Positions 2 to 52,444 are shown, counted from the stretch's first letter. The stretch is DNA of 64,000 nt from Candidatus Latescibacterota bacterium (GCA_965203805.1 OZ241917.1:768001-832000); one strand, 5' to 3'. The notes: generated from the letters alone by a model not told the origin. Numbers and translations: made by a program.

Positions 2-1594
2 GAAGTGTGGGTAACGGACGACGGCGGCGAAATCGACCTGGACCTCGGGAACTACGAGAGATTCCTGGGGCTCGATCTTCCGAGGACGAACAACCTGACC
101 ACGGGCCAGATCTACCATACCGTTATCGAGCGGGAACGCCGCGGAGAGTATCTGGGCAAGACCGTTCAGCCGATTCCACATATCACCGATGAGATCAAGC
201 AGCGAATTACCGATTCGGCGAACGGGTTCGACATCGCGCTGGTAGAAATCGGCGGCACCATTGGCGACGACGAGAATCGGCCCTTTTTGTTTGCAATGAA
301 AAGCCTGGAACGGGAGGTGGGCGAGGAAAACGTCATATACGTGCTGGTTACCTATCTTCCGGTGCCCGGTCACGTGGGCGAGATGAAAACCAAGCCCACT
401 CAGCATGCGATCCGGTCCTTGAGCGAAAACGGCATATTCGCGGACTTCATCATCTGCCGCGCGGTTGAAGCGCTCGACGACGTGAGGAAGCGAAAAATCG
501 AGATTTCGGCGAATATCTCGGCGGACCGGATTATCTCTGCACCCGACGTGGACAGCATCTACCAGGTTCCGCTGGAATATGAAAAGGACCGGCTGGGCGA
601 GAAAATCCTGGATGAGTTCGGCCTGTCTCCCAGGAAGACCCCGGACTGGGAGCGATGGTGTGAGTTGCTAAAGATGATTCGCGTACCGACGGAACGGGTG
701 CGCGTGGCGATGGTAGGCAAATATGTCGGGATAGGGGATTATGAATTTCAGGATTCCTATATCTCCGTCAACCAATCCCTCGAACACGCGGGCGCCCTGC
801 TTGACACCAAGGTGGAAATCGACTGGATAGATTCCAACCGCCTGGAACGTCACGATGTTGGCGAGGTGCTCGCCGGATATCACGGCATTATTGTGCCCGG
901 TGCGTTTGGAGAGGGTGGGGCCGAAGGCGCCATCAACGCCGTCCGTTACGCCAGGGAAAACCAGGTGCCCTTCCTGGGGCTTTGTTACGGCCTGCAGATG
1001 GTCGTGGTGGAATACGCGCGCCACGTGGCCGGATTGAACGACGCGAATTCCGTTGAAATGGATCCCGATTCGCCGCACGCAGTCATCGACATTCAATATG
1101 CGCAGCGGCAGATCATCGAAGAAAACCGATACGGCGGCACCATGAGGCTGGGAGGGTACGCGGCCGTATTGCGGCGGGAATCCCGGGTACTCGACCTTTA
1201 CGAGCGAACGGGAAGGCTGGAGGAGGATTCGTGGCGGATCCGGCAACTGTGCGAGCGCCCCGATCAGATGTTCCGGTGCGGCGTGATCCTCCCCAGCGAG
1301 AAAGCGGTGGTTGAGCGGCATCGGCACCGGTATGAAGTTGCGCCCAAATACGTGGACCTGCTTGAGGAATACGGGCTGTTCTTTTCGGGATTTCACCGCA
1401 GGGAGGACGGCACCAAGCTAATGGAGTTCGCGGAACTGCCCGATCATCCGTTTTTTGTATCAACCCAGGCGCATCCCGAGTTCAAGTCGCGTCTGGAACG
1501 CCCTGCGCCGCTGTTCTATGGACTGATCAACGCGTCCATCCGCTATTCCGGAACGGACCGGGAGGAGTCCGTGCAAATCGAGATCGAGACATGA
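2..1594 (+). CDS. pyrG: CTP synthase (5' end outside window)
   Basis: DLDLGNYERF, KTKPTQH, GLCYG (GATase Cys), RHRHRYE and HPEF motifs. Confidence 0.97.
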   Translation, partial: EVWVTDDGGEIDLDLGNYERFLGLDLPRTNNLTTGQIYHTVIERERRGEYLGKTVQPIPHITDEIKQRITDSANGFDIALVEIGGTIGDDENRPFLFAMKSLEREVGEENVIYVLVTYLPVPGHVGEMKTKPTQHAIRSLSENGIFADFIICRAVEALDDVRKRKIEISANISADRIISAPDVDSIYQVPLEYEKDRLGEKILDEFGLSPRKTPDWERWCELLKMIRVPTERVRVAMVGKYVGIGDYEFQDSYISVNQSLEHAGALLDTKVEIDWIDSNRLERHDVGEVLAGYHGIIVPGAFGEGGAEGAINAVRYARENQVPFLGLCYGLQMVVVEYARHVAGLNDANSVEMDPDSPHAVIDIQYAQRQIIEENRYGGTMRLGGYAAVLRRESRVLDLYERTGRLEEDSWRIRQLCERPDQMFRCGVILPSEKAVVERHRHRYEVAPKYVDLLEEYGLFFSGFHRREDGTKLMEFAELPDHPFFVSTQAHPEFKSRLERPAPLFYGLINASIRYSGTDREESVQIEIET

Positions 1595-36788: not shown

Positions 36789-37679
36789 ATGCGTATATCG
36801 GCAACGGGATTGACAAAAGTCTATCCGAAGGGGACCGTACCCGCGCTGGACAACGTCGACCTGGAAGTCGGACGGGGGACGTTCGGTCTGTTGGGCCCGA
36901 ACGGTGCGGGAAAAACCACGCTGATCAAGGTTCTTTCAACACAGATGGCGCCAACGGCCGGTCACGTCAGGATCGGCGCCTGGGACCTGCAGAGAAACCG
37001 TTCCGAAGTGCGGCGGCGGCTGGGTTACCTTCCCCAGCACTTCGGAGCATATCCGCAACTGACGGCGTGGGAGTTTCTGGACTATATGGACCGGCTGGCA
37101 GCCGGGCGACGTCGGACCGGGCGGAGGGCGCGGGTGCGCGATGCGCTTGAAAACGTGGGGCTGTACGACGCGCGGGACCGACGGACCGGCGCCTTTTCCG
37201 GTGGAATGATGCGACGCCTCGGGATTGCTCAGGCCATTGTCGGCGATCCGGAAATCCTGATTGTGGACGAGCCCACCGTGGGTCTCGATCCGGAAGAACG
37301 CATCCGTTTTCGTGGGATTCTCGCGCGGCTGAGTCGGGACAGGACGATCCTGATTTCCACTCATATCGTAGGCGATATTTCGAGCACCTGCGATGACCTG
37401 GCGGTGCTGAATGAAGGGCGGATTATCTACAGGGGATCGCCCGATGCCCTGGTCGCTCGCGCGAATGACAAGACCTGGCGGGTACAGGCGGACGACGCGG
37501 AGTTCGACACGATATCCCGGCGATTTCTTGTTGTGACGGTCGCAGTGGACGGCGGACGAATGGACCTCCGGTTCGTGGGCGACGGCCAGCCGCCCGCCCA
37601 CGCCGAACCGGTACCGCCAAACCTCGAAGACGCATACGTGTATTTTATGGGCAGGGAGAGTCAGGAAAAGGCAGCCTAG
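36789..37679 (+). CDS. ABC transporter ATP-binding protein
   Basis: [35 protein letters not shown]. Confidence 0.95.
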   Translation: MRISATGLTKVYPKGTVPALDNVDLEVGRGTFGLLGPNGAGKTTLIKVLSTQMAPTAGHVRIGAWDLQRNRSEVRRRLGYLPQHFGAYPQLTAWEFLDYMDRLAAGRRRTGRRARVRDALENVGLYDARDRRTGAFSGGMMRRLGIAQAIVGDPEILIVDEPTVGLDPEERIRFRGILARLSRDRTILISTHIVGDISSTCDDLAVLNEGRIIYRGSPDALVARANDKTWRVQADDAEFDTISRRFLVVTVAVDGGRMDLRFVGDGQPPAHAEPVPPNLEDAYVYFMGRESQEKAA

Positions 37680-37682
37680 GCC

Positions 37683-40600
37683 ATGGAAACGGTTTATACC
37701 GTATTGTCGGTCGCAAGATACGAGCGCAAGATGCTGATGCGGACGATCCGATTCCGGATCCTGGGCGGAATCGGCGTGCTCATTCCCGTTGCTCTGGGCG
37801 TCGGCCTGGCGATCGCGGAATCCAGAGGCATCGCATTCGAGTCTGTCAGCGGCATCGGCGCCTATATGCCCTTTTTCGTCTACAGTCTGCTGCAGACCGT
37901 CGTGATCGCGTTTATCGTTGGAGATTTCCGCGCCTCGGACGAGCGCGCCGGAATCTACGAAGTGGTTGCGGCCCGGCCGCTTTCTACGGCCGAACTGGTC
38001 ATGGGCAAATACCTGGGGGTCCTGGGGGCGCTGATTACGCTGAGCCTGGTCGTTCTGGTGCTCAGCCTGGCAGTGCAGGCGGCCAAGATCAGCGTTACCG
38101 GCGCGCCGTTTGCGATCCGACCTTATCTGACGTACCTGCTGCTGCTGAACCTCCCCGGGCTGGTCTATATGTCCGCTCTTACGTTTTTTTTCGGGGCGGT
38201 ATTTCGCCGGCAGGCCGCAGTGACCGTGCTGACCATCGCTTACGTCCTTATCGTTCTGCTGTTTCTTGGAAGGCGATACGGCGGTATCTACGATTTCGGC
38301 GCATTCTTCGCCCCGGTGTTCTACTCGGATATGCTCGGCCTCGGCGATATCCGGCGGGTGGTGGAGATCCGGGGCTTCTACACGTTTCTTGCCCTGTTTT
38401 TCTTTGGTTTGTCTATAGACCGGTATCCGCGGCTTCCTCAGTCCCGGGCCTGGCGCAGATTCGGTCGATGCCTGACCGCCGGCGGTTTCGTCGCCGCGGT
38501 GTGCCTGTACGCGTATATGGAAAGACGGGACTCGTCAGACCTCGCCTACCGGATGGCGCAACTGGAAGTCCAGGAAGGAATCGCCGGTCAGCCAATGTCG
38601 GCCGTTACGCATTATGCGCTCGACCTGGACCTCGCGAATGGCCGTACGCCACTGCGGGGCAGGGCGGTTCTCAGCGTTTCGAACCCTCACCCCGTAACGC
38701 TCGACACCCTCGTTTTCAGTCTCAACCCCGGGTTGGAATTGCAATCGGTGAATGCAGTTGCGGAGAAGGACGTCGATATCAGCTGGCAGCGTGAGTATTC
38801 TGTCGTGAGAATCGCGCGTCCGCTTAAGCCCGACAGTCTGGTGACGTTGGCGTTCGTTTACGACGGCTCGATCGACCTCAGCGGATTCGATCTGAGGCGA
38901 CATCCGGAAGCAAGACGCCTGCAGAAGCGGCGAACGGGGCCGGGAAGGAAAGGGGACCTGACCGCCTGGATCCGCCGGAACTCCGTATTCCTGCCGCCAC
39001 GCAGCAGGTGGTATCCCTCGCCGGGCGTGGACTACGGTCATCAGGATGGCCGCCCCCAGTCCTTCGCCACCGCAGATCTGGATATTGCGCTTCCCGCGGG
39101 ACTGGAAGTCGTGACCCAGGGTGTGCCGGTGGGCCGGAAGAAAGAGGGCGGCCGCGAGACTCATACTTGGAAAGTGGAACGCCCCGTACCCGTTCTTTCG
39201 CTCAACGCGGGCGTGTACCATGTCTTTCAGGCCGAAATCCACAATATCCAATGCGCCATATACGTACATCCGGCCCACGCCAGGCAGGTTACCTTCTTCC
39301 ACGACGCGAGGGACGACGCATTGAAAACGCTGGGCGAGATCCTGGATAGCGTTGAACAGGAAACCAGCCTGGCCTATCCGTACCAACGCCTGTCGGTTGT
39401 GGAGGTGCCATTCCAGGTACAGTGGTATTACGACGGATGGGAGGAGGCTGGCGGACTGGTGCAGCCCGGCGTGCTGATGCTGGAAGAGGACGTCCTGATG
39501 CGGCTGAATCTGCAACGCCGTCTGAAGTGGATGCAGCGGCGACAGCGGCGTAACGACGACCCTGCCAGAATCAAGCGGGACCTGCTGGTCAGGACGGTGC
39601 TGAACACGTTTCTCGCGCGGGAATCGACTCAAAGCGGCATCTACAGGAGTCCGGTGGCGCAACTCTGGTCGTTCAACCGGGGATTCGAAGGCGAACACTA
39701 TTCCCTGCTCAAACGCGGCATGCCAGTCTATATGCAGCAGAATCTCGGGACCACAATGCAACAGAGCTTCTACTCGAGGCGGGGACGGTTTCGAGGCCGG
39801 TTCCGGCGGAACAGGAGCGCGCGCGGCGTTTCCTGGGATACCGTAACGGCCAGGATGCGGCAGCGTTCTTTTGCGGAACTCGACCCGACTGCCGACGCGG
39901 AACTCTACCGGGCGGTCGTCGACGCCAAGGGCGCCTCCATGTTCGGAATGATGCAGGCCGTGGTGGGCGAAGATGCATTCAGAGACGTGGTCAGCGGATT
40001 CGAGGAGGCGAGCCGGCACGCGGGAGTCGACTTTGCGTCGTTTGAGCGCGCGGCTGTCGGCGATTCGTCGAGGCAGGCGGAACGGCCCAGCCTGAATCGA
40101 CTCGTCCGGGACTGGCTTCACGGCACCCAGGTTCCGGGCTACACCCTGACAAGGGCAAAAGCATATAAGGTGGACGACGGATGGGGCATGATGACGTATC
40201 AGGTCATCGTGCGTATCCGGAACGGCGAGCCGGGGCGCGGATTTGTCCAGATTCGAGCCATGGGGACCGAAGACGAGGCTGTCAAGGGCGTTGAGATCGA
40301 GGGCGGACAGGAGGTTGAGGTGGGACTGATCCTCTGGGAAAGGCCTTTGAGGATAAGCGTCGAGCCGTTCTTTGCTCGCAACCGCCGGGTCCTGATGGCG
40401 CCGTTACGCATACCCGAGCAACCAATGGAAGGATCGGCCGCGACCTATGTAAGGGAGGTCGCGCCGGACGAGACCGGATTGACCGAGATTATTGTGGACA
40501 ACGATGACGAAGGCTTCGAAATGCCGGTCCGCAGGGTGCGGCGCTATCTCCGTCCGCAGTTGAAAGGCGACAACTGGCAGGAACGCCAGATGCCGTTCTC

Positions 40601-41054
40601 TTTCGGCAGGTACGAAAACAACTACAGGTGGAAGAAACCGGGCGACGGCGCGCAACCGGCCGTCTGGACGGCCCGATTACCGCACAGCGGGGATTACGAC
40701 GTCTACTACTATTTCCTTCATCCCAGGTTCTCCAGGCGCATGCGTATGGCGTCGGAATTCAGTCTGGCCGTCTGTTACGGCGACGAGGTGGATACGCTGG
40801 CGGTCGAATCGAACAACCTGAAGGCCGGCTGGAACGTCTTGGGACGATACCGGTTCGAGGGCGGAGAACTGGCCCGGGTCGAGTTGTCCGACCGCGCCAA
40901 CGGCCGCCTTTACGCCGACGCGGTGCGCTGGCGATACGTGGATCCCGACCATCCGGAAGAGGTGTACGAAGAGGATCTGCCGACCTGGATTTTCGGTCAC
41001 GGCGGCCGGGGCGGTCGAGGCGGCGGCGGATCGCGGCGTGGGAGAAGCTGGTAA
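37683..41054 (+). CDS. ABC-2-type permease fused to an M1-aminopeptidase-like domain and a C-terminal golvesin/CBM-like beta-sandwich
   Basis: About 7 N-terminal TM segments with ARPLS..ELVMGK; HYALDL...FSLNPGL...WYP...YPYQRLSVVEVP...AKG M1-like scaffold; IIVDNDDEGF...GDYDVY...GWNVLG...ADAVRW. Confidence 0.75.
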   Translation: METVYTVLSVARYERKMLMRTIRFRILGGIGVLIPVALGVGLAIAESRGIAFESVSGIGAYMPFFVYSLLQTVVIAFIVGDFRASDERAGIYEVVAARPLSTAELVMGKYLGVLGALITLSLVVLVLSLAVQAAKISVTGAPFAIRPYLTYLLLLNLPGLVYMSALTFFFGAVFRRQAAVTVLTIAYVLIVLLFLGRRYGGIYDFGAFFAPVFYSDMLGLGDIRRVVEIRGFYTFLALFFFGLSIDRYPRLPQSRAWRRFGRCLTAGGFVAAVCLYAYMERRDSSDLAYRMAQLEVQEGIAGQPMSAVTHYALDLDLANGRTPLRGRAVLSVSNPHPVTLDTLVFSLNPGLELQSVNAVAEKDVDISWQREYSVVRIARPLKPDSLVTLAFVYDGSIDLSGFDLRRHPEARRLQKRRTGPGRKGDLTAWIRRNSVFLPPRSRWYPSPGVDYGHQDGRPQSFATADLDIALPAGLEVVTQGVPVGRKKEGGRETHTWKVERPVPVLSLNAGVYHVFQAEIHNIQCAIYVHPAHARQVTFFHDARDDALKTLGEILDSVEQETSLAYPYQRLSVVEVPFQVQWYYDGWEEAGGLVQPGVLMLEEDVLMRLNLQRRLKWMQRRQRRNDDPARIKRDLLVRTVLNTFLARESTQSGIYRSPVAQLWSFNRGFEGEHYSLLKRGMPVYMQQNLGTTMQQSFYSRRGRFRGRFRRNRSARGVSWDTVTARMRQRSFAELDPTADAELYRAVVDAKGASMFGMMQAVVGEDAFRDVVSGFEEASRHAGVDFASFERAAVGDSSRQAERPSLNRLVRDWLHGTQVPGYTLTRAKAYKVDDGWGMMTYQVIVRIRNGEPGRGFVQIRAMGTEDEAVKGVEIEGGQEVEVGLILWERPLRISVEPFFARNRRVLMAPLRIPEQPMEGSAATYVREVAPDETGLTEIIVDNDDEGFEMPVRRVRRYLRPQLKGDNWQERQMPFSFGRYENNYRWKKPGDGAQPAVWTARLPHSGDYDVYYYFLHPRFSRRMRMASEFSLAVCYGDEVDTLAVESNNLKAGWNVLGRYRFEGGELARVELSDRANGRLYADAVRWRYVDPDHPEEVYEEDLPTWIFGHGGRGGRGGGGSRRGRSW

Positions 41055-41098
41055 ACCGTTGGACAACGTCAGACGATAACCCTTTTGCGAGGTGCAAT

Positions 41099-42175
41099 TT
41101 GAACAGGCGATTCCTGAGCGATTACTGCATTGCATTCACGGCTGTTGTCGTTGTAGCCGGCTGCGGCGGGCAAACCGAGCAGCGGTCCGTGGACCTGACC
41201 GTCCCGGTCACCGTCCAGGCCGTTCGCCTGGACACCATGGAGGCGACTGTGGCCGCCACCGGTACGCTCCGGCCCTCCCGGGAGGCCCGCATACAGACCG
41301 AGGTCGAAGGTATTCTTCAATATGTCGCCCGGGGCGTCGGAGGACGACCGAGCGAAGGAATGCGGGTCACCCGGAACCAGGAGATTGCCCGGCTGGTGAA
41401 CAAGGAGCTTGTCGTAAACGCACGCATGGAATCCCGGCAACTCGCACGCGCCACCGCGAAACGAACGCTGCGCGAGCAGGAGGTACTCGTTGAACGAAAG
41501 CTGGGCACGGAGAGAGACCTGGACGAAGCGCGCCGCGCCCTCGCCGAGGCCGAATCCAATTACGAAGACGCGCTCGTTCAGATCGCCAAGACGACAATCA
41601 GGACGCCAATCAGCGGTTTTCTGACGGGATTGGCCGACATTACAGAGGGTACGCTGGTGGAAGCCCGAACGACCATCGCTACCGTGATGGATTACAGACA
41701 GGTGCTCGTCGATCTGAAGATTCCAAACGCCTATATCGCATCCGTTTCACCCGGCCAGGTCGTGCGAGTGGAAAACTATGCATTGCCCGGAAGGCGGTTT
41801 CTGGGAACCATCAGGGTCGTGGACCCGGCCATCGATCCGGCCACGCGTACCTTCCGGGTCGTTGGGGCCGTGAAGAATCCGAACCTGATGTTGCGTCCCG
41901 GCATGTTTGTGAAAGCCGAGATTGTCACGGAGTCTCACGAAGACGCGGTGGTGATCCCTCGCCGCTTCGTCCTGACCCGCCGGAATCGCAAAGTGGTGTT
42001 CGTGGAAGCGGAGGGGAGGGCTCAGATGCGCGACGTGGAACTGGGTTTGGAGGGCCCCGAGCAGGTCGAGATTCTGGAAGGGCTTGAAGCGGGCGAGCGC
42101 CTCATTACCAGCAATTACGAGACGCTGCGCCCCCGTACCCGTGTGCGTGTAACCGGCGTGGGCGTGCAGCAATGA
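41099..42175 (+). CDS. RND periplasmic adaptor (MFP) lipoprotein
   Basis: TTG start with GAGGT RBS; lipobox VAGC; IRTPISG, PAIDPATRTF, LRPGMF, VEILEGL. Confidence 0.92.
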   Translation: MNRRFLSDYCIAFTAVVVVAGCGGQTEQRSVDLTVPVTVQAVRLDTMEATVAATGTLRPSREARIQTEVEGILQYVARGVGGRPSEGMRVTRNQEIARLVNKELVVNARMESRQLARATAKRTLREQEVLVERKLGTERDLDEARRALAEAESNYEDALVQIAKTTIRTPISGFLTGLADITEGTLVEARTTIATVMDYRQVLVDLKIPNAYIASVSPGQVVRVENYALPGRRFLGTIRVVDPAIDPATRTFRVVGAVKNPNLMLRPGMFVKAEIVTESHEDAVVIPRRFVLTRRNRKVVFVEAEGRAQMRDVELGLEGPEQVEILEGLEAGERLITSNYETLRPRTRVRVTGVGVQQ

Positions 42176-42284
42176 ATGCGAATACCGTGCGCACGTCGCC
42201 GGGAGCGCCCGTCGCAATTTTCCGGTAACGGTTCGCCGCGGACGGAACATCATTCGAAATCATCGGGTAAGTTGTCGTTTGGAC

Positions 42285-42333
42285 CCCTCTGGGGCCCAGG
42301 GACTGCGTGTGGGCCTTCCGGAGGGTTTTTTTT
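42285..42333 (+). terminator. Terminator-like hairpin inside the transporter cluster
   Basis: ccctctggggccca / tgggccttccggaggg followed by T8. Confidence 0.6.
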
Positions 42334-42408
42334 GATCTTGATCCGTCCCTTCTCGGGGACGTCAATTCGAGTATATGCAAGCGGATCTCATTACTAAGGG
42401 CCGATACC

Positions 42409-45400
42409 ATGCCATTGCCCGAATTTTCGACGAAATATCCGGTAACGGTTGCCATGGCAACGCTGGCCGTCGCGCTCCTGGGCTGGATTTCGCTGGAGCG
42501 GCTGGAAGTGGACCTGCTTCCCGACCTGCGTTCTCCCGTGATTACCGTGGACCTGCGATTTCCGGGCAAAACCCCCAGGGAGATGGAGGAACGATATGCG
42601 CGTCGTCTGGAAGGGGATATCGGCACGGTACGCCACGTCAAACGCGTTCACTCCGTGTCCCGTTCCGGGCAGGCCGTGGTGATCGCGGAATTTGAATGGG
42701 ATGCGGACATGGATTTCGCGCTGCTCGATGTGCAGAAGAAAGTGGCGCGGTACGCTTCGGATCCCGATATCACGAGTCTGGACGTCACACAGGAAGACCC
42801 CCAGGCGTTGCCGGTGATGCGTCTGGCCGTCTCGGGAGCGGACTGGCAGGATCCTGATGAACTGCTGGGCAACGCGGAAACCGTCATCCGGCCCAAACTC
42901 GAGGGGTTGTCCGGGGTGGCTTCGGTGGAAATCGAGGGGGGAGCCGAAAAAGAAATCCGGATCACACTGGATTCCTATCTCCTTCAAGCATTCGGAGTCA
43001 CTTCGGAGACGGTCGTCTCGCGGATACGTGAAGCCAATTCGGATGTCTCCGGCGGAACGTTGAAAGACGGACAACGTACCTATCTGGTCAAAGGCCTGGG
43101 ACGTCTGACCGACTTGGCAGACGTGAACAACCTGGTTGTCGGTGAGCGCCGCGGCGAATCTTCGAATGGCGGGGAAGACGCCTCGACCCAGCGCGTGCCC
43201 GTCACGGTAAGCGATGTGGGTACGGTAGGCCTGCTATATAAGGAGAGGGAAACCATCGTGCGCCTCGACGGCTTGGAGTGCGTCGGGCTTTCCGTTTACA
43301 AGGAAGCCGGCGCGAATACCTCGTCGGTGGTCAACGGGGTTCTCGGGGAACTGGAAAGACTCGAGGCCGATCTGACCGGCATCCGGTTTACGGTGGTGGA
43401 GAACCAGGCCCGCTTCGTCGAAAACGCGGTAAGTGAAGTGGAAGAGGCGGCCGTTCTTGGCGCCTTGCTTGCAGTGGGCGTGTTGCTGGCTGCGCTCCGG
43501 CAGTGGACCGCCACGCTGGTGATCGGACTCGCCATACCGATTTCCGTTCTGGCCACGTTCACGCTGATGTATTTCCAGGGGCTGACGCTGAACGTCATGA
43601 CCCTGGGCGGCCTGGCGCTGGGCGCCGGCATGCTGGTGGACAACGCCATTGTCGTGATTGAGAACATCTACCGGCACCTCGAGAGGGGAGAAACGGCCGC
43701 AGAGGCCTCCGTCAGAGGCGCCAGTGAGGTCGGGGTCGCGATTCTGGCGTCCACGTTGACCACGGTGTCCGTGTTTCTGCCCATTGTCTACCTCCACGGG
43801 TTGGCGGGCGAACTCTTCAAGGAACAGGCCTGGACGGTCGCGTTCTCGCTGGTTTCGTCTCTCGCGGTGGCGATGACCGTGGTGCCCATGCTGACCGCCC
43901 GGCTCTTCAGGCGGTATCCGCGACGGTCCGCAGGGATCGCGGGGGCGCGGTCCTTCAGGCGTTTTCTAAGCCGTTCACTCAACCATAAGGGACGTACGAT
44001 GGCGGTGCTCGCGGCCTGCCTGCTGGCCGCCTTCTATATGGCAAGGTCCATCCATACGTCTTTTATCCCCACGGAAGACGAGGGTGTGCTCCACGTGGAT
44101 CTCGCGCTGCCGGAGGGCACGCGACTCGAGTCGACAGACAGGGTGGCGAGGCGAGTTGCCGCCATTACCCAGGCGGTTGCCGGAGAGGAAGCGCGCCACA
44201 TCTACCTGCGGGTTGGAACCGATCCGAACCGGTTTACCGCGGTGGGAGAACCCACCGGCCCGAACAGAGCCGAACTGACGGTCGTGCTGGGCCGGCAGGC
44301 GGACCGTCGCAGCGTCTCCGAACTCACCACGGTTCTGGATACAGCCCTCCTCGAAGTCCCTGACATTAAGGTTAATTATCGGCTTCAAAAAGCTGCATTG
44401 GAAGGACTTATACGAGGTCACACTGCGCCGGTCCAGGTCGAGGTCAGCGGTGAGAACCTGGACCTGCTTCGGGAATTGACCACAGATCTGAAGCGGCGAA
44501 TGGACGCGTTGTCCACGGTGTATAACGTGCGGACCAGCTTTCAGGACGGTCAGCCCGAGGTAGACGTGGTACTGCGACCGGATATCACCGCCGCGTTCGG
44601 GCTTACCTCACAGAATCTCGTGCGCGAACTCGAGCGCAGGCTCGGCGGCGAGGAAGCCGGAGAACTCTCCAAGGACCAACGGGCGCGAACGATCCGGGTT
44701 GGGTTCGAGGACGTGGACCTTCGGGAACTGCAGCACGCGAGAATCGACGGTCCCGACGGGGCGATGCTCACGCTGGGAGATCTCGCCGACCTGCGGGTCG
44801 TGCAGGGTCCAAGGGAAATCCTGCGGGACGGTCAGCGCAGGGTGGGGCGGGTGTCCGCCTTCCTGACCGACGGTGTGGTCTTGAGCCAGGCGGCAACGCA
44901 AATCAGGCAGGCAGTGGGACAGATGGCCATCCCGCACGGATACCAGGTGACCGTAACCGGAGAGGAACGGGAGCGGGCCGAATCATTCGGCGGCCTGCAA
45001 TTCGCCCTTCTGCTTTCGGTGGTGCTCGTCTATATGGTCATGGCTTCGCTCTTCGAGTCTCTGCTTCATCCGTTTACCGTCATGCTGACGGTGCCGCTGG
45101 CGGGCATCGGCGTGGTATTCGCATTCTGGAGCCTGGGAGAAGCGTTCGGCGTGATGGCGTTCATCGGCGCGATCATGCTGGGCGGTATCGCCGTTAACGA
45201 CGCCATCATTCTGGTGGACCACATCAACCAGTTGCGGCGCGAGGCGGGCGACGTGCGACAGGCCGTACTCCAGGCCGCGCAGGATCGGCTGCGTCCGATC
45301 CTGATGACCAGCGCCACGACCATTCTGGCGCTGTTGCCCATGGCGGTGGGCGTCGGCGAAGGCGCGCGCCTGCGGGCCCCGATGGCGGTGGCCGTTATCG

Positions 45401-45492
45401 GCGGTCTGGTCACGTCCACATTGATGACCCTTGTGGTGATTCCCGTCGTTTACGAACTGATTGAAGGGCTCAGAAGGAGGAGGGCGGCGTGA
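42409..45492 (+). CDS. RND permease (AcrB/SwrC-like)
   Basis: DLLPD, GMLVDNAIVVIENI, ASLFES..HP, RLRPILMT, IGGL. Confidence 0.95.
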   Translation: MPLPEFSTKYPVTVAMATLAVALLGWISLERLEVDLLPDLRSPVITVDLRFPGKTPREMEERYARRLEGDIGTVRHVKRVHSVSRSGQAVVIAEFEWDADMDFALLDVQKKVARYASDPDITSLDVTQEDPQALPVMRLAVSGADWQDPDELLGNAETVIRPKLEGLSGVASVEIEGGAEKEIRITLDSYLLQAFGVTSETVVSRIREANSDVSGGTLKDGQRTYLVKGLGRLTDLADVNNLVVGERRGESSNGGEDASTQRVPVTVSDVGTVGLLYKERETIVRLDGLECVGLSVYKEAGANTSSVVNGVLGELERLEADLTGIRFTVVENQARFVENAVSEVEEAAVLGALLAVGVLLAALRQWTATLVIGLAIPISVLATFTLMYFQGLTLNVMTLGGLALGAGMLVDNAIVVIENIYRHLERGETAAEASVRGASEVGVAILASTLTTVSVFLPIVYLHGLAGELFKEQAWTVAFSLVSSLAVAMTVVPMLTARLFRRYPRRSAGIAGARSFRRFLSRSLNHKGRTMAVLAACLLAAFYMARSIHTSFIPTEDEGVLHVDLALPEGTRLESTDRVARRVAAITQAVAGEEARHIYLRVGTDPNRFTAVGEPTGPNRAELTVVLGRQADRRSVSELTTVLDTALLEVPDIKVNYRLQKAALEGLIRGHTAPVQVEVSGENLDLLRELTTDLKRRMDALSTVYNVRTSFQDGQPEVDVVLRPDITAAFGLTSQNLVRELERRLGGEEAGELSKDQRARTIRVGFEDVDLRELQHARIDGPDGAMLTLGDLADLRVVQGPREILRDGQRRVGRVSAFLTDGVVLSQAATQIRQAVGQMAIPHGYQVTVTGEERERAESFGGLQFALLLSVVLVYMVMASLFESLLHPFTVMLTVPLAGIGVVFAFWSLGEAFGVMAFIGAIMLGGIAVNDAIILVDHINQLRREAGDVRQAVLQAAQDRLRPILMTSATTILALLPMAVGVGEGARLRAPMAVAVIGGLVTSTLMTLVVIPVVYELIEGLRRRRAA

Positions 45493-48400
45493 TTCTCCCC
45501 GATCTTGCGGTCCGGCGGCCCGTAACGACGTCGATGTTCTTTGCCGCATTCGCCATATTGGGAGTCGTGTCGTGGACGAGGCTTCCGGTACAGCTTTTTC
45601 CGGAGTTGATCTTTCCGGAAGTGTTCGTCACGCTGTCGCTGCAGGGGGCATCTCCGGAACAGGTGGAACGAGATCTGCTGGTTCCCGCTGAAGGGGAGAT
45701 CGGCAAACTGGACGGCGTCCAGGAGATGGAGTCGTTCGCGATGGCCAACAGGGGAGGTATTCGCATATCCTACGCGCCCGACGTGGATATGAAGTTCGCC
45801 CTGCTTCAACTGCAGAGCAACCTGAACAGACTGCAGCCGACGCTGCCCGAGCGTACTCAGTCCGACGTCAGGAGGTTCGATTCGACGGATCTCAGCAGCA
45901 GCATTATGGAGCTTCACGTGCTCGCCGACTGGGACCTGAACCCGTTGCGGGAGTTCACGGAAGAAAAAATCCGGCCCGAACTGGAGTCAGTCGACGGTGT
46001 CGTCAATGTGTCCGTGTTGGGCGGACGGCGCAGCGCCGTTGAAATCGTCCTGGATCCGTTCCTGCTCGAGGCGCATGGCCTTTCGACGGGACAGGTTCGG
46101 GCACGCCTGAACAGCTATAACCGGCGGCGTGAGTACCTGGGGCGCGTATTCGACGGGAATCGGGCCTATTCGGTGAGCATTCAGGGGCAGTTTACGGACC
46201 TTCGTCAGATTCGCGATCTCGTCCTGAACGCGGACGGCACGCTCAGGCTGGGCGACGTTTCCCGGGTGGGATTCGGACTCCAGGAACAGGCCGATCGGCA
46301 CAGAGTCAATGGAAGACCGTCGGTGGGCGTCCGCATCCAGAAGGACGACGAAGCGAATCTGATCGAGGTTGCCGCGGCGGTCGAAGCCGCCATCGGCAGG
46401 CTGAATCGCGACTTCAAGAGCGCGGGTGTGGAACTGGGCGTGAGTTCCTCACAGGCGGATCTGATGACCGGAGCGCTTTCCACCCTGAAGCAGGCGGCCA
46501 TTGCCGGCGCCGTGCTCGGACTGATCGTGCTCTTTCTGTTTCTTCGGAACCTTCGTTTCGTTTCGGTCCTCCTGCTGGCCATACCGATTTCTCTCCTGAT
46601 GACCTTCAATCTGATGTACCTCGGCGGGCTGTCCGTCAACGTGCTGTCTCTGTGCGGTCTCGCCCTGGCGATGGGCATGCTTGCTGACAACGGCATCGTG
46701 GTGATGGAAAATATCTTCAAGCACTACGAGCGGGGAAAGTCGCCCGCCGACGCGGCACGGGACGGGGCGGCCGAGGTCGGGCGCGCCGTGGTTGCGGCAA
46801 CCGCAACAACCGTAACCGCATTCCTGCCGGTTCTGTTCATCGAGAGCGACGCGCGGGACCTGCTGCGGGAACTCGCGTTGTCCATGGCGTTTCCGCTGCT
46901 GGCGTCGTTGCTCGTGGCCCTGACGCTGGTTCCGGCCCTCGCCGTCCGGGCGTTGAGCCGCGGGGTCCGACAGCCTCCGGACGTTCGCGGGTTGCTCGAA
47001 CGGTATACGCTGCTGCTGAAGACTGCTCTGCGCCACCGCGCATCGGTGGTCCTGTCCGCAGGAGTGGCGCTCGCGTTGACACTCGTGTTGGCGTTCTTCT
47101 ACCTGCTGCAACAGCAGGTACGCAGGGAGGAGACACGTTTTACGGTCTACGTGAACCTTCCGGAAGGAGCCACGCTGGACGCGACGGACGAGGTCGTGAA
47201 ACAGGTGGAGGCATCCGTACGGGACGTGCCCGGTCTGGACCGGTTTACGACGTCGGTCCGTGAGGCGGAAGCCGACGTGAATGTATTGCTAGACAGACGT
47301 TCTGACCGGCCCGGCGGCATCTCGCTGGATGAAATCAAAGAGCAACTCGACGACAAACTGCAGAATGTACGGGGAGGGGTTGTCGGATACGAAGCCAGGC
47401 CCCGCGCGGGGAGGGGCGGGCGCGGGCAGGGGATCGGACAACGTCGGAGACGCAGTTCCGGAGGATTCGATCTGACCGGGGCCACGCCGAACGAACAGGT
47501 TGTGGTTCGAGGATACGACTTCACGATACTGACGATGATTGCCAATGACCTGGTTTACCGCCTCGAAGAACTGGAGGAGGTGGATGCCAACAGCGTACGC
47601 GCCGACGCCGAACGGAGTTCGCCCGAGGTGCAGGTGATACCCGATGCGGCCGCCCTGTTCGACCGGCGGCTCGGCGCACAGGAAGTGCTCGCCGCCATGG
47701 GTGACACCCGTTGGGACGGGTTTCGCACAACGGTCCCGTTCCTGCTGCCCGATGCAACCGAGGTACCCATCGAAGTGCGTACGATCGAAGAGGAGGACCG
47801 CGACCGCTACGGGCTGGCTGAATTCAGGGGTTCACGCATTCTGAACCGGGACGGGCATTACGTACCTCTGTCCGAAGTGGCGAGGGTCCGGACGGATGAG
47901 GGCCGGAGCAGCCTGTTGCGGACCGACCAGACCCGTCGGATTGTGGTTTCCTACCGGTATCCTTCGGAGATTCTGGATTCCCAGCCGCGGTTGGATCTTG
48001 CGAGACGGGTCGTGCGAACGACGCTGCAGGACATGGTTCTGCCGGAGGGGTATTCGATCGAAATCATCGAGGCGCACGAGGAGATGATCTACTATTGGAT
48101 GATGGCGGTCGCAGCTGTACTCATCTATATGATCCTGGCGTCGCTGTTTGAGTCTTTCGCCTCGCCGATCATCATTCTGTGTACGCTGCCGCCCGCGGCC
48201 ATCGGCTCCTGCTGGGCGCTGATGATGTCGGGCACGGGCCTGAGCCAGCAGGAGGGACCCATGGCGCTTCTGGGACTTATCGTCCTGCTGGGTATTGCGG
48301 TGAACAACGGCATCATCCTGATCGACGCGGTCGGCGTGCTCAGGACCCGATTCGGCTTTCGACGGGAACGCGCGGTGCTGACCGCGGCGCGGTCGCGTGT

Positions 48401-50201
48401 TCGACCCATCCTGATGACAACGGCCACGACGCTTCTGGGCGTTCTTCCACTGGCGCTCGAATACGGCGGCGATTTTGAAATCTGGCCGCCGTTCGCAATT
48501 ACCGTTCTGGGCGGGCTGTCGGTTTCCATGGTCTCCACGCTGATCCTGATTCCGGTGGTCTACATGGGACTGGATCAGATCGGCGCCTGGCTTGCCGACA
48601 TGGGGGTTATCGCCGTCACGCTGTCGCTGCTGGCGACCGCCGCGGCCGGGTATGGCGTTTATGTGCGGTACGAAAGCGTTTTCTGGGCAACGCTGTCGAT
48701 ATTGCCCATCTGGGGCGCGTGTCTGGCAGCGGTATGGACCGTCCTGAAAATACACCGCGCCCGGGTCGCGGCCCGGCGGGTATCCGGCGCCGTTCATTCC
48801 ATACAGCTGAGAAATCTTACCAAGGTCTACGGCGCGCCCGGGCGGTTTGTACGGGAGTGGGCGCGCAACGAGCGCCGGCGAGGGCGGATGATGGAAACCG
48901 GTCCGGAGCCACACGACCGCAGGGCGGTCCGTGACGCGCTCATCTGGAAGCTGCCGTTGCTCGCGCTGTTGTCGGTCTTCACGACCTATTTCGAGGACGA
49001 GATCTGGATCTATCTGCACGGGCTGGCGCTGGCATCCATGATTGCGCACGTGGGGAGATGCGTCGGAGACCTGAGAGAAAGGCAACTTCCGGCGCCGATC
49101 GCCCGCATTGGCGCCCTGCTGCTCAAAGCCGTGCTGCCATTGACGTTTGTCGGCTACGTGCACTTGCGGCTGAACCTGCTTTCTGTCACACTTGCCACGT
49201 TCGGGCTGTGGGTCGTCTATCGACTGGTGCGGTGGCTCGCCGACAGGGTACGTTCCGGGGAGATCGATCCCGATGCCTTGTCCGGACGTCTGGCGCGGCC
49301 GCGCATGTGGAGCTATCGAATGGCCTCGGCCATGCCGATCGTCGGCGTCCCCCGGCCGGAGTTTCGGGCGCTGGCGGGCGTCAACCTGGAAATCGGCAGG
49401 GGGATGTTCGGGCTACTGGGCCCCAACGGCGCCGGCAAGACCACATTGATGCGCATTCTCTGCAGGGTACTCGAACCCAGTTACGGCTCCATTCTGATCG
49501 ACGGTCGAAACGTCCTGAACAGGGGATCGATTCACGGTCTGATCGGCTACCTGCCGCAGCATTTCGGCAACTACGGACACCTTTCCGCATACGAGTATCT
49601 GGAATACCGTGCACTTCTGGAGGGTTACAAAGACCGGAAAATTCGGGACGCCCGGGTGATCGAATCCCTGGAACAGGTCAATCTGATCGAACGGAAAGAC
49701 GATCCCGTCGGCTCGTTTTCAGGCGGAATGAAGCAGCGCCTCGGCATTGCCCAGACCCTCCTGCACACCCCGCTGATCGTGGTGGTGGACGAGCCCACGG
49801 CGGGTCTCGATCCGCTGGAGCGCATCCGGTTCCGCAACCTGCTTGCCAGGTTGAGCCAGGATCGCATTGTCATTTTCTCCACGCACATCGTGGAAGATAT
49901 CTCCGGAAGCTGCAATCGTCTGGCAGTACTGGACCATGGGTGTCTTCTGTATACGGGAACACCGGAGGAAATGAGGAATCTGGCGACGGGACGGGTGTGG
50001 GACACGGTGGTATCGGAGCGGCGTTTTTCGGAGATGGAGGACAACCTTAAGCTCATTTCGCATCAGCGAACGCCCGGCGGGGTCCGGATGCGGTTCCTGT
50101 CGGAACACGCGCCGGTCGATATCGGCGCGCAGAGCGTGGACCCAACTCTGGAAGACGCGTACCTGTACCTGCTTGGCGGAGGGGAGGGACAGCCGTGCTG
50201 A
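45489..50201 (+). CDS. RND permease fused to a C-terminal ABC ATPase domain
   Basis: RND motifs (GMLADNGIVVMEN, ASLFES, RVRPILMT) followed in frame by extra TM segments and [27 protein letters not shown]. Confidence 0.92.
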   Translation: MILPDLAVRRPVTTSMFFAAFAILGVVSWTRLPVQLFPELIFPEVFVTLSLQGASPEQVERDLLVPAEGEIGKLDGVQEMESFAMANRGGIRISYAPDVDMKFALLQLQSNLNRLQPTLPERTQSDVRRFDSTDLSSSIMELHVLADWDLNPLREFTEEKIRPELESVDGVVNVSVLGGRRSAVEIVLDPFLLEAHGLSTGQVRARLNSYNRRREYLGRVFDGNRAYSVSIQGQFTDLRQIRDLVLNADGTLRLGDVSRVGFGLQEQADRHRVNGRPSVGVRIQKDDEANLIEVAAAVEAAIGRLNRDFKSAGVELGVSSSQADLMTGALSTLKQAAIAGAVLGLIVLFLFLRNLRFVSVLLLAIPISLLMTFNLMYLGGLSVNVLSLCGLALAMGMLADNGIVVMENIFKHYERGKSPADAARDGAAEVGRAVVAATATTVTAFLPVLFIESDARDLLRELALSMAFPLLASLLVALTLVPALAVRALSRGVRQPPDVRGLLERYTLLLKTALRHRASVVLSAGVALALTLVLAFFYLLQQQVRREETRFTVYVNLPEGATLDATDEVVKQVEASVRDVPGLDRFTTSVREAEADVNVLLDRRSDRPGGISLDEIKEQLDDKLQNVRGGVVGYEARPRAGRGGRGQGIGQRRRRSSGGFDLTGATPNEQVVVRGYDFTILTMIANDLVYRLEELEEVDANSVRADAERSSPEVQVIPDAAALFDRRLGAQEVLAAMGDTRWDGFRTTVPFLLPDATEVPIEVRTIEEEDRDRYGLAEFRGSRILNRDGHYVPLSEVARVRTDEGRSSLLRTDQTRRIVVSYRYPSEILDSQPRLDLARRVVRTTLQDMVLPEGYSIEIIEAHEEMIYYWMMAVAAVLIYMILASLFESFASPIIILCTLPPAAIGSCWALMMSGTGLSQQEGPMALLGLIVLLGIAVNNGIILIDAVGVLRTRFGFRRERAVLTAARSRVRPILMTTATTLLGVLPLALEYGGDFEIWPPFAITVLGGLSVSMVSTLILIPVVYMGLDQIGAWLADMGVIAVTLSLLATAAAGYGVYVRYESVFWATLSILPIWGACLAAVWTVLKIHRARVAARRVSGAVHSIQLRNLTKVYGAPGRFVREWARNERRRGRMMETGPEPHDRRAVRDALIWKLPLLALLSVFTTYFEDEIWIYLHGLALASMIAHVGRCVGDLRERQLPAPIARIGALLLKAVLPLTFVGYVHLRLNLLSVTLATFGLWVVYRLVRWLADRVRSGEIDPDALSGRLARPRMWSYRMASAMPIVGVPRPEFRALAGVNLEIGRGMFGLLGPNGAGKTTLMRILCRVLEPSYGSILIDGRNVLNRGSIHGLIGYLPQHFGNYGHLSAYEYLEYRALLEGYKDRKIRDARVIESLEQVNLIERKDDPVGSFSGGMKQRLGIAQTLLHTPLIVVVDEPTAGLDPLERIRFRNLLARLSQDRIVIFSTHIVEDISGSCNRLAVLDHGCLLYTGTPEEMRNLATGRVWDTVVSERRFSEMEDNLKLISHQRTPGGVRMRFLSEHAPVDIGAQSVDPTLEDAYLYLLGGGEGQPC

Positions 50202-50917
50202 ACTGGCGGGAATTGCTGCTGACCACGTGGCGGCTTTATCGGCTGAGCTGCAGGATCATATTCCACAGGAAATTGATGTTCATGGGCATCGGCCTTCTCG
50301 TCTATTACGCCGCCATGTACGCGTTCGCGGTGTGGCGCCCCGACGAGGGGTTCGGCGTATCGCAGGCGCTCAACGTCCTGGTTGAAATCCCCGGTATTGC
50401 GCTTGCCATTTATCTGACGATGGATCTCGTTGCGGGCGAACGAGACCGGAATACACTTGAAACCCTGTTCAGCACAACCTCTACCCATTACAAGATCTGG
50501 ACGATCCGGATGGTGGGGGTGTATCTGGTTCTGGCGGGAACCCTCATGGGAATGACGGTGGTCGCGTATTTCGTCTTCGCCGAACTTCCGATTTTCCGGG
50601 GCGGGTTGAATGCTTTTCTGCCGGCATGTCTTGCCGCCGGACTCACGTTCTACTTCTCCGTTCTCTGCCGAAGCGGCAACGCGGCCGCAATGCTCGCGAC
50701 CGGGGTGATGGTCCTGGCTCTGGTCGTTTCGAAGTCCCTGCCCGATTCTCCCTTCGTGCTCTTTCTGGACACGTTCGATCCACCGGTGGGCATGGAAGAC
50801 ACGCTTTGGGGCGACCGGGTCCTGCTGAATCGTCTGGCCGTCGTGCTGCTGTCGGGCTTGCTGCTTTTTATCGGTCTACGCAGAATGGAAGCAAGGGAAC
50901 GGCTGGTATCTTCGTAG
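50195..50917 (+). CDS. ABC-2-type permease
   Basis: About 6 TM segments; GERDRNTLETLF coupling-helix motif; overlaps the stop of the RND-ABC gene. Confidence 0.8.
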   Translation: MLNWRELLLTTWRLYRLSCRIIFHRKLMFMGIGLLVYYAAMYAFAVWRPDEGFGVSQALNVLVEIPGIALAIYLTMDLVAGERDRNTLETLFSTTSTHYKIWTIRMVGVYLVLAGTLMGMTVVAYFVFAELPIFRGGLNAFLPACLAAGLTFYFSVLCRSGNAAAMLATGVMVLALVVSKSLPDSPFVLFLDTFDPPVGMEDTLWGDRVLLNRLAVVLLSGLLLFIGLRRMEARERLVSS

Positions 50918-50964: not shown

Positions 50965-52107
50965 CTATTCTTTTCTTACGTCCAGCCGGACTTTTCGGGG
51001 CGCTACGTTCACGACCGCCAGATCGGTCCCATGCCTGATCGACTCGACGCCGAACTCGAACGTCCTGCGCCCGATCCCGACGTAGCCGGCATCGATTACG
51101 AGCCGAAAGGCGTCTTTGGGCGCGAGCAGAAGGGCGCGTCGGGGACCCTTCACAGTGACGTCTACGGCGGCTGGTCTCACGCTCTCCAGTGCATATCCGC
51201 CCGGCAGATTCTCCACGCCGACCGCCACTTCATACGTCGCTTCCTGGACCGACGCGCCCGGCACCAGAAAGACCCATGCGCCGAACGCCAGCGCGAGGGA
51301 GAGCACGCCTTCCGAGAGATGCCGCGCCAGCCTGCCCCGACCGGTCTTGGGCGCACTGCGGACCGCATGCTGCGCGTGCTCCTGCAACCTGGAAAGCAGT
51401 TCGTCGGGGTCGTTAACGATTTCCAGTCGACCCCGACGCGCGACGGCGATGGTGCCGCGCTCCTCGGAAACGACCAGGCAGAGGGCGTCGCTGCGTTCTG
51501 TCAGCCCGAGCGCCGCGGCGTGGCGAGTTCCTCCCGGCCCGAGTTCGCTGCGGTTTTCCGACAGCGGCAGATGGACGGCAAAACGCTCCAGCCGGTCTTC
51601 CCTCATCACCAGCGCCCCGTCGTGACCGGCCGAAGTCGTGCCGAACAGGCTGTCGATGAGCTCCTCGCTGATCGTGGCATGCAGTACAATCCCGCCCTGC
51701 AGGAGCCGGTCGAGCGGTTCCCGTCCGGGCAGGACCACCAGGCCGCCCCGCCGATTCGCCGCCAGTTGATGCATTGCGCGAACCAGAACCGCCAGACTCC
51801 CGCCGTGGGGCCGAGATGCCCTTCTGCCCAGGCCCAGTGCGGCAATCTGCTCGAAGAGCCTCCGCAGGTCGTCCTGGAAGACAACAACCAGCAGCACGAC
51901 GAGGACGGCAAAGAACCCCTGGAATATCCACGCCGTCAGCTGCAGTTCGAACTGGCGCGCCAGGAGATAGAAAGCGCCCAGAAACGCAAGCCCGACCAGC
52001 GCCATGCGGGCGTGCATCCTCCGGGTCCAGGCCAACAGCCCCCAGAACAGCGCGCCCACCACCGCTATGTCCACGAAATCTGAAAATGTGACCTCAAGCA
52101 GCGTCAT
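50965..52107 (-). CDS. Diadenylate cyclase (CdaA/DisA_N) fused to a YbbR-like domain
   Basis: 3 TM segments, FQDDLRR, HDGA, GTRHAAALG, VVSEERG; then a TM segment and VENLPGG...VTVKGP. Confidence 0.9.
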   Translation of the reverse strand: MTLLEVTFSDFVDIAVVGALFWGLLAWTRRMHARMALVGLAFLGAFYLLARQFELQLTAWIFQGFFAVLVVLLVVVFQDDLRRLFEQIAALGLGRRASRPHGGSLAVLVRAMHQLAANRRGGLVVLPGREPLDRLLQGGIVLHATISEELIDSLFGTTSAGHDGALVMREDRLERFAVHLPLSENRSELGPGGTRHAAALGLTERSDALCLVVSEERGTIAVARRGRLEIVNDPDELLSRLQEHAQHAVRSAPKTGRGRLARHLSEGVLSLALAFGAWVFLVPGASVQEATYEVAVGVENLPGGYALESVRPAAVDVTVKGPRRALLLAPKDAFRLVIDAGYVGIGRRTFEFGVESIRHGTDLAVVNVAPRKVRLDVRKE

Positions 52108-52444
52108 ATTCTATGTTTTCCGCCAGCCGGATTCGGTCGATTGAGGGCGATAGGGCACCCGACGGCGTGTGCATACCCGCCAGCCCGAAATATGGGCAAT
52201 CTTCCTCGTTTCGTCAAGACCGCCGCTGCCGGTTTGCTTCGTGGCCGATCGACGTCTGCCGGATTCCGCAGCTGCAGGACCGCGGTCCGGTCCGGGTGGT
52301 ACAAGTTCCCCCGTTGAATCGATCCGTGGTTCTCGTCTTTCGTTTGGTCGGTCCCGGGAAAATACCTATATTTGGAGACGTTCAGGGACAACCGGAACGG
52401 GTCAACACCAAATTTCACGCGGTAATCGGACGGAGGCAAGCGAC

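Follow-up and report, generated by a model that had tools for sequence, protein, structure and literature searches.

An RND pump subunit fused to an ABC ATPase in a conserved Latescibacterota gene cluster, a candidate composite envelope exporter

We analysed a 64,000-nt window (C1:768001-832000) of the 5.87 Mb genome of a marine Candidatus Latescibacterota bacterium. The locus at 36789-50917 on its + strand includes a single gene for an unusual fusion, here named RND2::NBD2, in which a resistance-nodulation-division (RND) pump subunit continues in frame into the nucleotide-binding domain (NBD) of an ATP-binding cassette (ABC) transporter. This fusion is genuine and not an assembly artefact. 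The cluster in which it lies is a conserved hybrid of two known pump classes that apparently has not been described before: it is made of known parts, and what is new is their combination and the split ATPase domain. A first-pass annotation made from the sequence alone had proposed six co-oriented genes here, and all of them, including the start of NBD1, were found on the + strand where it had placed them. Its anatomy was also right, with two NBDs, two putative ABC-2 permeases (PERM1 and PERM2), two RND subunits and one membrane fusion protein (MFP), and with one NBD in the same frame as an RND (Table 1).

The RND2::NBD2 fusion is genuine

The single open frame of the fusion gene matched ACR_tran and ABC_tran with E-values of 1e-179 and 1e-26, respectively, far beyond chance. 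When the linker and NBD2 (residues 1030-1570) were used as the query, all 120 homologues among the matches listed carried both PF00873 and PF00005. Most of these were 1540-1646 aa long, with 39-99% identity and, where a source was named, they came from Gemmatimonadota, Latescibacterota, Acidobacteriota, KSB1 and Calditrichota assemblies. In related genomes, open frames of about 1570 aa or more contained full-length matches to the same query, and a second match, of the NBD1 type, lay 11.6-12.7 kb upstream on the same strand. At a threshold of E<=1e-90, 82 of the 168 phylum genomes had exactly one linker and NBD2 match; among the high-quality genomes the count was 34 of 52, and 27 of 49 genera were represented. 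The earlier worry that the fusion might be unique to this contig is thus dispelled by the homologues in other genomes.

The junction sequence is present in 20 public runs from 7 studies of sponge, coral and marine metagenomes, and independent DNA contigs from three of these studies (X4, X5 and X6; Table 1) span it with zero insertions or deletions. A frameshift or chimeric join that merged an RND gene with a neighbouring ABC gene is hardly credible when the listed relatives all share the architecture, their genomes hold full-length matches in frames of such length and no indel appears where contigs from other studies pass through the junction. Nothing was found in favour of such a join.

The 266-residue linker is family-specific, with 48 cluster representatives among 1.84 billion proteins, and in full-length matches (1559-1590 aa) it is always at about residues 1020-1300. 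Of seven shorter linker matches examined, three fall in the same 90% clusters as full-length proteins (1565-1570 aa) and three are on contigs of 1.5-6.1 kb. A complete unfused form of the linker and NBD2 was not found among the linker matches, where the short ones look like fragments, and no search dedicated to shorter proteins was made. A generic scan for Walker A/B patterns returned 80 loci, which were mostly ordinary ABC genes; at L065, L051 and L054, what had resembled long matches proved to be separate genes or unrelated.

An AlphaFold2 model of fusion residues 1001-1570, built from 33 aligned rows, had a predicted local distance difference test score (pLDDT) of 79.8 and a predicted template modelling score (pTM) of 0.53. 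In the model, RND helix 12 is followed by two membrane helices (model residues 40-61 and 64-96, in a block with pLDDT of 81-92), a beta-strand, a short helix, four further membrane helices (144-164, 171-196, 202-228 and 231-255) and, from model residue 292, the remaining ABC ATPase. NBD2 is therefore split in the model, with its first strand (fusion residues 1104-1114) about 180 residues ahead of the remainder of the domain and the four membrane helices between them. Solved NBDs align from model residues 101-104 on, skipping the insertion, with Z scores of 25-29 for the NBD fold. The match to 4yer_B has a Z of 28.9, and that to 1vpl a Z of 27.1 (root-mean-square deviation 1.7, 234 of 238 aligned, model 103..563 against chain 2..239). 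The A-loop tyrosine is on the detached strand, where L1110, K1112 and Y1114 are invariant in 30/30 fusion proteins, as are the Walker A motif, Q1357, SGGM, D1434/E1435 and H1466 of NBD2. As modelled, the ATPase domain of NBD2 is complete, but a pair of membrane hairpins, four helices in all, interrupts it. As the inserted helices are always even in number, NBD2 would stay cytoplasmic. The possibility that the six extra helices of the linker are a hidden ABC-2 membrane domain was rejected, as a comparison of the PERM2 and fusion profiles gave a probability of 0.4%.

Table 1. Features of the cluster and contigs that span the fusion junction (positions in the window)
Feature	Position	Strand	Description
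NBD1	36789-37679	+	296 aa; stand-alone ABC ATPase, ABC-2/DrrA-like; ABC_tran 109.5 bits; start MRISATG
PERM1	37683-41054	+	1123 aa; probable ABC-2-type permease with large, probably periplasmic domain; Golvesin_C 57.6 bits
MFP	about 41099-42175	+	RND periplasmic adaptor lipoprotein; TIGR01730 190.4 bits, HlyD_D23 89.5 bits
Hairpin and eight U	42285-42333	+	within the 233-nt MFP/RND1 gap, 42176-42408
RND1	42409-45492	+	unfused RND permease, 1027 aa; ACR_tran 752.5 bits
RND2::NBD2	45489-50201	+	one open frame, 1570 aa; ACR_tran 5-1027 (598.8 bits), ABC_tran 1297-1438 (93.3 bits)
RND2 part of fusion	45489-48578	+	residues 1-1030
Two extra membrane helices after RND helix 12	48606-48776	+	residues about 1040-1096; from model
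First beta-strand and A-loop of NBD2	48798-48830	+	residues 1104-1114, IQLRNLTKVYG; from model
Four-helix membrane insertion in NBD2	48918-49253	+	residues about 1144-1255; from model
NBD2 core, all catalytic motifs	49362-50201	+	residues 1292-1570; ABC_tran
PERM2	50195-50917	+	240 aa; small six-helix permease, probably ABC-2-type; weak ABC2_membrane_2 match
Junction contig X5	47800-49441		15,231 nt
Junction contig X4	48670-50066		1,397 nt
Junction contig X6	47800-49058		13,832 nt

Conservation of the module and properties of its subunits

Whether the six genes occur together elsewhere had been left as a check by the first-pass annotation, and the gene set recurs in other lineages, even reshuffled. 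The gene order was the same in 6/6 relatives fetched and in 5/5 Bacteroidota loci. In arrangement A, found in five relatives (L110, L112, L113, L114 and L115), the genes are in the order seen in the window, and there is no TolC gene. In arrangement B, an extra gene of approximately 1.5 kb lies between PERM1 and MFP. This form was found in the Bacteroidota loci L029, L030, L031, L033 and L034, and in L030, which is from the cultured Labilibacter sediminis, the extra gene belongs to the outer-membrane efflux protein (OEP) family (159.3 bits). Arrangement B is also present in L111 (G057:C2:2838500-2858499), which is from the same class as the window and has a TolC that is 44% identical to the Labilibacter one. 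In arrangement C, represented by L032, the order is MFP, NBD1, a small ABC-2 permease, RND1, a PERM1 homologue of 922 aa (hhalign 99.8%), RND2::NBD2 of 1437 aa and OEP (97 bits). PERM2 is directly 3' of the fusion gene in 25 of the 26 loci searched, with L032 the exception. The fusion protein of L032 has a short soluble loop in place of the membrane insertion, and the tether is thus the constant feature while the insertion is a lineage-specific elaboration.

A tree was constructed from the RND parts, 11 other RND paralogues of the host genome and Escherichia coli AcrB with no rows dropped; it has three long branches (par_o216, AcrB and par_o275) whose own placement is uncertain. The RND1 proteins of all three arrangements formed one clade, with a Shimodaira-Hasegawa-like approximate likelihood ratio test (SH-aLRT) value of 100. 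Likewise, arrangements A and B had their RND2 proteins in a single clade (SH-aLRT 100), which the RND2 of L032 joined at only 70. As the RND1 and RND2 clades mirror each other in branching, the two have remained a pair since before the lineages split, and the fusion has accompanied them for a long time. Genes flanking the cluster vary between lineages, and the module is therefore the conserved unit. The parts from L111 sit nearer to the Bacteroidota ones in this tree. The L111 case suggests that the whole module may have moved horizontally between phyla.

The window contains no TolC gene, as the first-pass annotation stated; the genome has 14 OEP domain matches, in seven genes, and all lie outside it. 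As a TolC/OEP gene is inside the cluster in two of the three arrangements, gene content indicates that the cluster probably encodes a TolC-dependent trans-envelope pump. The host genome has 13 RND genes, and five of the seven TolC-like genes are adjacent to other RND genes, as with the OEP at 5556997-5558235 and the RND at 5558782-5562831. The two OEP genes near 1.476 Mb and 1.982 Mb, which have no RND gene within about 70 kb, are candidate channels for the fused system.

Both NBDs are ABC ATPases, with ABC_tran (PF00005) scores above the cut-off and all five motifs. The Walker A and B, signature and H-loop sequences reported earlier for both can be read in each, and those of NBD2 form part of the invariant set described above. 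In NBD1, the signature is FSGGM, Walker B is ILIVDEP and the H-loop is STHIV, and Walker A and the Q-loop were also identified by reading. The two NBDs share 45% identity, and the best NCBIfam match for each was drrA (TIGR01188), with NBD1 scoring 198 bits and NBD2 169.7, both short of the cut-off of 312.45.

RND1 and RND2 are both members of the RND superfamily, with ACR_tran (PF00873, cut-off 28 bits) matched at model positions 3-1020 and 3-1019, respectively. Neither reached the cut-offs of the hydrophobe/amphiphile efflux-1 (HAE-1) models NF033617, NF000282 and TIGR00915 (1250, 1250 and 940), for which RND1 scored 627.6, 462.2 and 403.2 bits and RND2 515.9, 370.1 and 319 bits. The MdtB and MdtC equivalog cut-offs (1584 and 1774 bits) were also missed by both, at 332-403 bits. 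In an alignment with E. coli AcrB, both subunits retain the equivalents of D407, R971 and T978, while D408 and K940 are replaced by Asn, so that the full AcrB-type relay set (D407, D408, K940 and R971) is absent from either. The TM4 (transmembrane helix 4) Asp and the RPILMT motif are kept in both, as had been noted from the sequence, even though the D408/K940 pair is replaced. The motifs are VDNA in TM4, AVND in TM10 and RLRPILMT in TM11 of RND1, and ADNG, AVNN and RVRPILMT in RND2, with position 941 (AcrB numbering) an Asp in the former and an Asn in the latter. The Labilibacter pair is identical at the relay residues. A degenerate relay in RND2, with ATP replacing proton-motive force, was considered and rejected because the 'DN...NN...R' pattern is also found in unfused paralogues of the same genome (o47, o174, o172, o206 and o216). 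The relay state, being common to unfused paralogues, indicates nothing special about energy coupling and is a habit of the lineage rather than a loss of proton coupling in the fused subunit. RND2 also has a periplasmic Gly/Arg-rich loop, 'RAGRGGRGQGIGQRRRRSSGG', at about residues 640-680 of the fusion (about 47400-47530 in the window), and the consensus of 30 fusion proteins shows the same arrangement of glycines.

RND1 and RND2 overlap by 4 nt at their stop and start, and the fusion gene and PERM2 by 7 nt in the same way; both overlaps would fit co-translation. The MFP, which has the lipobox VVAGC and an in-frame TTG start, exceeds the curated cut-off for RND adaptors (94.9 bits for TIGR01730 RND_mfp, matched over model positions 1-321). 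Its gene is the only MFP gene in the cluster, alongside both the ABC and the RND parts.

In an AlphaFold2 model of PERM1 (pLDDT 78.8, pTM 0.73), an N-terminal amphipathic helix precedes the membrane helices, of which seven are predicted within residues 1-300. The seventh is long, at 46 residues (255-300), and is followed by a beta domain (307-528), a helical domain (530-813), a beta-sandwich (820-907) and the Golvesin_C region (964-1082). The predicted topology, with seven helices and an Arg-rich loop before the seventh, would place this 820-residue domain in the periplasm. When the PDB was searched using Foldseek, residues from about 307 to 813 matched the fold of the M1 aminopeptidases IRAP, ERAP1/2 and PepN (E 7.5e-18 to 4e-15, probability 1.00, about 630-690 columns, 10-13% identity). 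Whereas the fold of these zinc enzymes is matched, the Pfam score for Peptidase_M1 was 17.9 bits (cut-off 27.7), and the HExxH motif was found in none of the 33 rows of the PERM1 family. Also, the domain is joined here to an ABC-2 membrane domain and a carbohydrate-binding module (CBM)-like domain. In a low-confidence profile alignment with E. coli PepN (probability 11%), HEYFH corresponds to NTFLA, E320 to R678 and Y381 to D747, so that residues other than ligands stand at the zinc and catalytic sites. Judging from the sequence and the model, the M1-fold domain is most plausibly a binding module without catalytic activity. Golvesin carries a CBM6-CBM35-CBM36-like carbohydrate-binding domain, and two Bacteroides proteins with this domain are lectins (PMC9166713). 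That domain is presumably the same region as Pfam Golvesin_C, and by analogy suggests, as a lead and not a result, that the C-terminal end of PERM1 might bind sugar. Among 8000 candidates scored, 132 relatives of PERM1 were found at E<=0.001, and PERM1 relatives carry precomputed PF12698 assignments. The 120 that were listed are mostly 1080-1215 aa, with some shorter ones on short contigs, and all but three include Golvesin_C.

No FtsX or MacB family was found among the Pfam and NCBIfam matches of PERM1 and PERM2, and the permeases are thus not assigned to the MacB/FtsX type. The periplasmic domain of PERM1 also follows helix 7, whereas in the four-helix FtsX type it is between helices 1 and 2. 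PERM2 gave a colinear profile match to the membrane domain of PERM1 (hhalign probability 55%, E 1.2e-4, 208 columns), and such a distant relationship would suit a heterodimer. When PERM1 residues 1-300 and PERM2 were predicted as a complex, the scores of 0.14 and 0.05 fell short of the 0.32 mark and speak neither for nor against the pairing.

The non-coding gap between MFP and RND1 contains a GC-rich hairpin followed by eight T (Table 1), a possible internal terminator or attenuator. The predicted fold of 42270-42345 (-29.9 kcal/mol, z -1.67 relative to shuffles) is not exceptional, and the hairpin was not listed by a consensus scan. In L110, which belongs to another family, MFP and RND1 are only 2 nt apart. 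The promoter and terminator scan gave no signal, finding 3 promoter-like sites where 3.9 would be expected and 9 terminator-like ones where 13.6 would, and no Rfam family reached its gathering score within the window. In one coral metatranscriptome (X19), contigs from an RNA library match four parts of the fusion gene with 0-2 differences. They leave 48808-49311 and 49732-50067 uncovered, which is uninformative as contigs drop rare sequences.

Relation to known systems and possible modes of action

No description of an RND-ABC fusion was found in the literature searched, the coverage of which excluded subscription journals and supplementary files, and the first-pass annotation's reservation that the system might already be characterised was not borne out there. 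A functional parallel is found in mycobacteria, where the RND protein MmpL7 and the ABC-2 exporter DrrABC are reportedly both needed for export of phthiocerol dimycocerosate (PDIM) lipids. There too an RND and a DrrA-type ABC-2 transporter serve one lipid, and drrA was the best NCBIfam match here, albeit below the cut-off; however, the mycobacterial parts are separate proteins in another type of envelope with no adaptor or TolC. The RND part resembles MdtABC-TolC of E. coli, in which two paralogous RND genes are side by side after one adaptor gene and a TolC-type channel is used, as it probably is by the cluster here. MdtB (9lyq_B) was the closest solved chain to RND2 (E 2.8e-84), and MdtC and MdtB were the best equivalog-level NCBIfam matches of both RNDs. 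In contrast, MdtABC has no ABC genes and no ATPase on an RND subunit, and the scores obtained here are far under the MdtB and MdtC cut-offs. For the ABC part, a near comparison is with E. coli YbhFSR, the adaptor of which is YbhG, encoded in the same operon. Like the proposed ABC part, this transporter has two NBDs and two different membrane subunits, with permeases of the ABC-2 type, but in YbhF the NBDs are fused to each other, with YbhS and YbhR separate (PMC13739795, PMC7190983), and it has no RND, no M1-like periplasmic domain and no membrane insertion in an NBD. MacAB-TolC is comparable as a trans-envelope pump made of an ABC ATPase, an adaptor and TolC, and its permease has a large periplasmic domain (PMC8277102). 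MacB is of the FtsX/type VII kind and its NBD is fused to its own permease, whereas here the permeases are apparently of the ABC-2 kind and an NBD is fused to an RND. Textbooks, like the same 2021 Chem Rev review, class the inner-membrane engine of a tripartite pump as an ABC, RND or MFS (major facilitator superfamily) transporter, and in the part of the review covered the words 'fused', 'hybrid' and 'chimeric' occurred only in other contexts (PMC8277102).

On balance, and with moderate confidence, we favour the interpretation that the six genes encode a single, cooperating composite envelope exporter in which an ABC and an RND part would be driven by ATP and proton-motive force, respectively. 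The dual-energy reading of the first-pass annotation, with the ABC part extracting or flipping a substrate for transfer to the RND, agrees with the data in this respect. The RND part would be a tripartite pump of RND1, RND2, one adaptor lipoprotein and a TolC-type channel encoded elsewhere in the host genome. The ABC part would be one heterodimeric ABC-2-type transporter, with NBD1 and NBD2 as its ATPases and PERM1 and PERM2 as its membrane subunits. The two would be tied covalently by NBD2, which forms the C-terminus of RND2 and is attached via six extra membrane helices, four of them inside the ATPase fold. RND pumps take substrates from the periplasm or the outer leaflet and are known to be fed by inner-membrane transporters. 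Other transporters further potentiate trans-envelope efflux (PMC4338810). In the composite exporter, the ATP-driven ABC part would take its substrate, which may be amphiphilic, a peptide or sugar-bearing, out of the cytoplasm or inner leaflet and move it up to the periplasmic face. There, the inactive M1-peptidase-like and carbohydrate-binding-like domain of PERM1 would receive or hold it, and the RND part would then use proton-motive force to push it outward through the adaptor and TolC. An MdtB2C heterotrimer has reportedly been described for MdtABC. If, in the same manner, an RND heterotrimer with a single fused RND2 protomer were beside one NBD1-NBD2 heterodimer, the mismatch between twofold and threefold symmetry would be reconciled, which would also explain why two RND and two NBD paralogues have been kept.

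A specific form of the composite exporter can be proposed only tentatively. In it, the heterodimeric ABC-2 transporter would be docked 1:1 on the RND heterotrimer by way of its one fused protomer, with ATP-driven extraction coupled both mechanically and spatially to proton-driven expulsion through TolC and the PERM1 domain serving as the hand-over station.

Several observations weigh against a single composite exporter. The match of PERM1 to ABC2_membrane_3 (28.1 bits) is below the cut-off of 31.6, and that of PERM2 to ABC2_membrane_2 (19.9 bits, E 4.9e-4) is below 27.2. At E<=1e-90, 86 of the 168 phylum genomes had no match to the linker and NBD2, and a module missing from about half of the genomes is not essential. 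In the host genome, the six genes may form two transcripts with the hairpin between them. The RNA contigs from coral are a hint that the fusion gene is expressed, but that library may contain carried-over DNA.

Two other explanations accept the fusion and assign it a different role. An ATP-operated RND pump seems unlikely to us; the ABC part would move no substrate, and the ATP cycle of NBD1 and NBD2 would gate, prime or power entry to the RND/TolC duct, the signal passing via the six extra helices and the long stalk helix of PERM1 by analogy with mechanotransmission in MacB, LolCDE and FtsEX. The conserved four-helix insertion right after the NBD2 A-loop could couple nucleotide state to the RND membrane domain, the 46-residue helix that leads into the PERM1 periplasmic domain resembles a stalk helix, and that domain appears to be a catalytically dead fold of the binding type. 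However, the permeases are apparently of the ABC-2 and not the FtsX/MacB kind, with no FtsX family among their Pfam and NCBIfam matches, and the short-linker lineage retains the fusion without the membrane insertion, which is therefore not essential to the design. Furthermore, the TM4 Asp and TM11 Arg are kept in both RNDs, as in unfused paralogues, so the RNDs are apparently self-powered.

The remaining explanation, that the cluster encodes two functionally separate pumps that are co-encoded and co-localised, is quite improbable in our view. Here, the fusion would serve only for equal dosage or joint placement, with the adaptor and TolC perhaps shared. ABC-2 transporters that use an adaptor are known, such as YbhFSR with YbhG, and a single MFP gene would have to serve both systems, while the possible terminator between MFP and RND1 in the host genome would separate them. 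Against this, several phyla and three gene orders retain the covalent link, and the trees of the parts mirror each other. The complete unfused form of the linker was not seen among the linker matches, where the short ones look like fragments, and dosage alone poorly explains such long retention of a fusion.

The fusion is of interest as a natural and widely conserved protein that joins two engine types within a fixed gene set that includes an adaptor and often TolC. It makes testable whether an RND pump can be fed from the cytoplasm, how a dimeric ABC transporter might fit a trimeric RND, and whether ATP and proton-motive force can be used in one cycle. If the 1:1 docked, dual-energy route were true, such a tripartite pump would represent a new class and would be the first RND system able to reach cytoplasmic substrates directly. 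Bacteria in sponge, coral and marine metagenomes have the system, and as it is also present in the cultured Bacteroidota isolate Labilibacter sediminis, experiments are feasible. The substrate could be a lipid, glycoconjugate or peptide, with relevance to envelope biology or host-associated life.

Neighbouring genes

The cluster is flanked in the window by unrelated genes of housekeeping type, for a thiamine pyrophosphate (TPP) enzyme, a RidA-like protein, a CdaA-type cyclase, a tetratricopeptide repeat (TPR) protein and a beta-propeller protein. The gene directly downstream (50965-52107, - strand) encodes the CdaA-type diadenylate cyclase, which has a DAC domain (107.8 bits) and a CdaA_N membrane domain; it is not beside the cluster in the distant relatives examined. 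Following the TPR protein gene (52169-53125), 53122-56664 (+) encodes a 1180-aa protein with PQQ_2/BamB-like and FG-GAP beta-propeller repeats. A homologue of the latter (50% identity over residues 620-1167) is near the cluster in L114, on the opposite strand. Upstream of NBD1, long frames at 35425-36672 (+) and 35140-36360 (-) overlap. Only the + frame, for a 415-aa protein, has a family match (Endoribonuclease L-PSP/RidA-like, 42.6 bits), and the - frame is probably a shadow frame of the kind seen in high-GC DNA.

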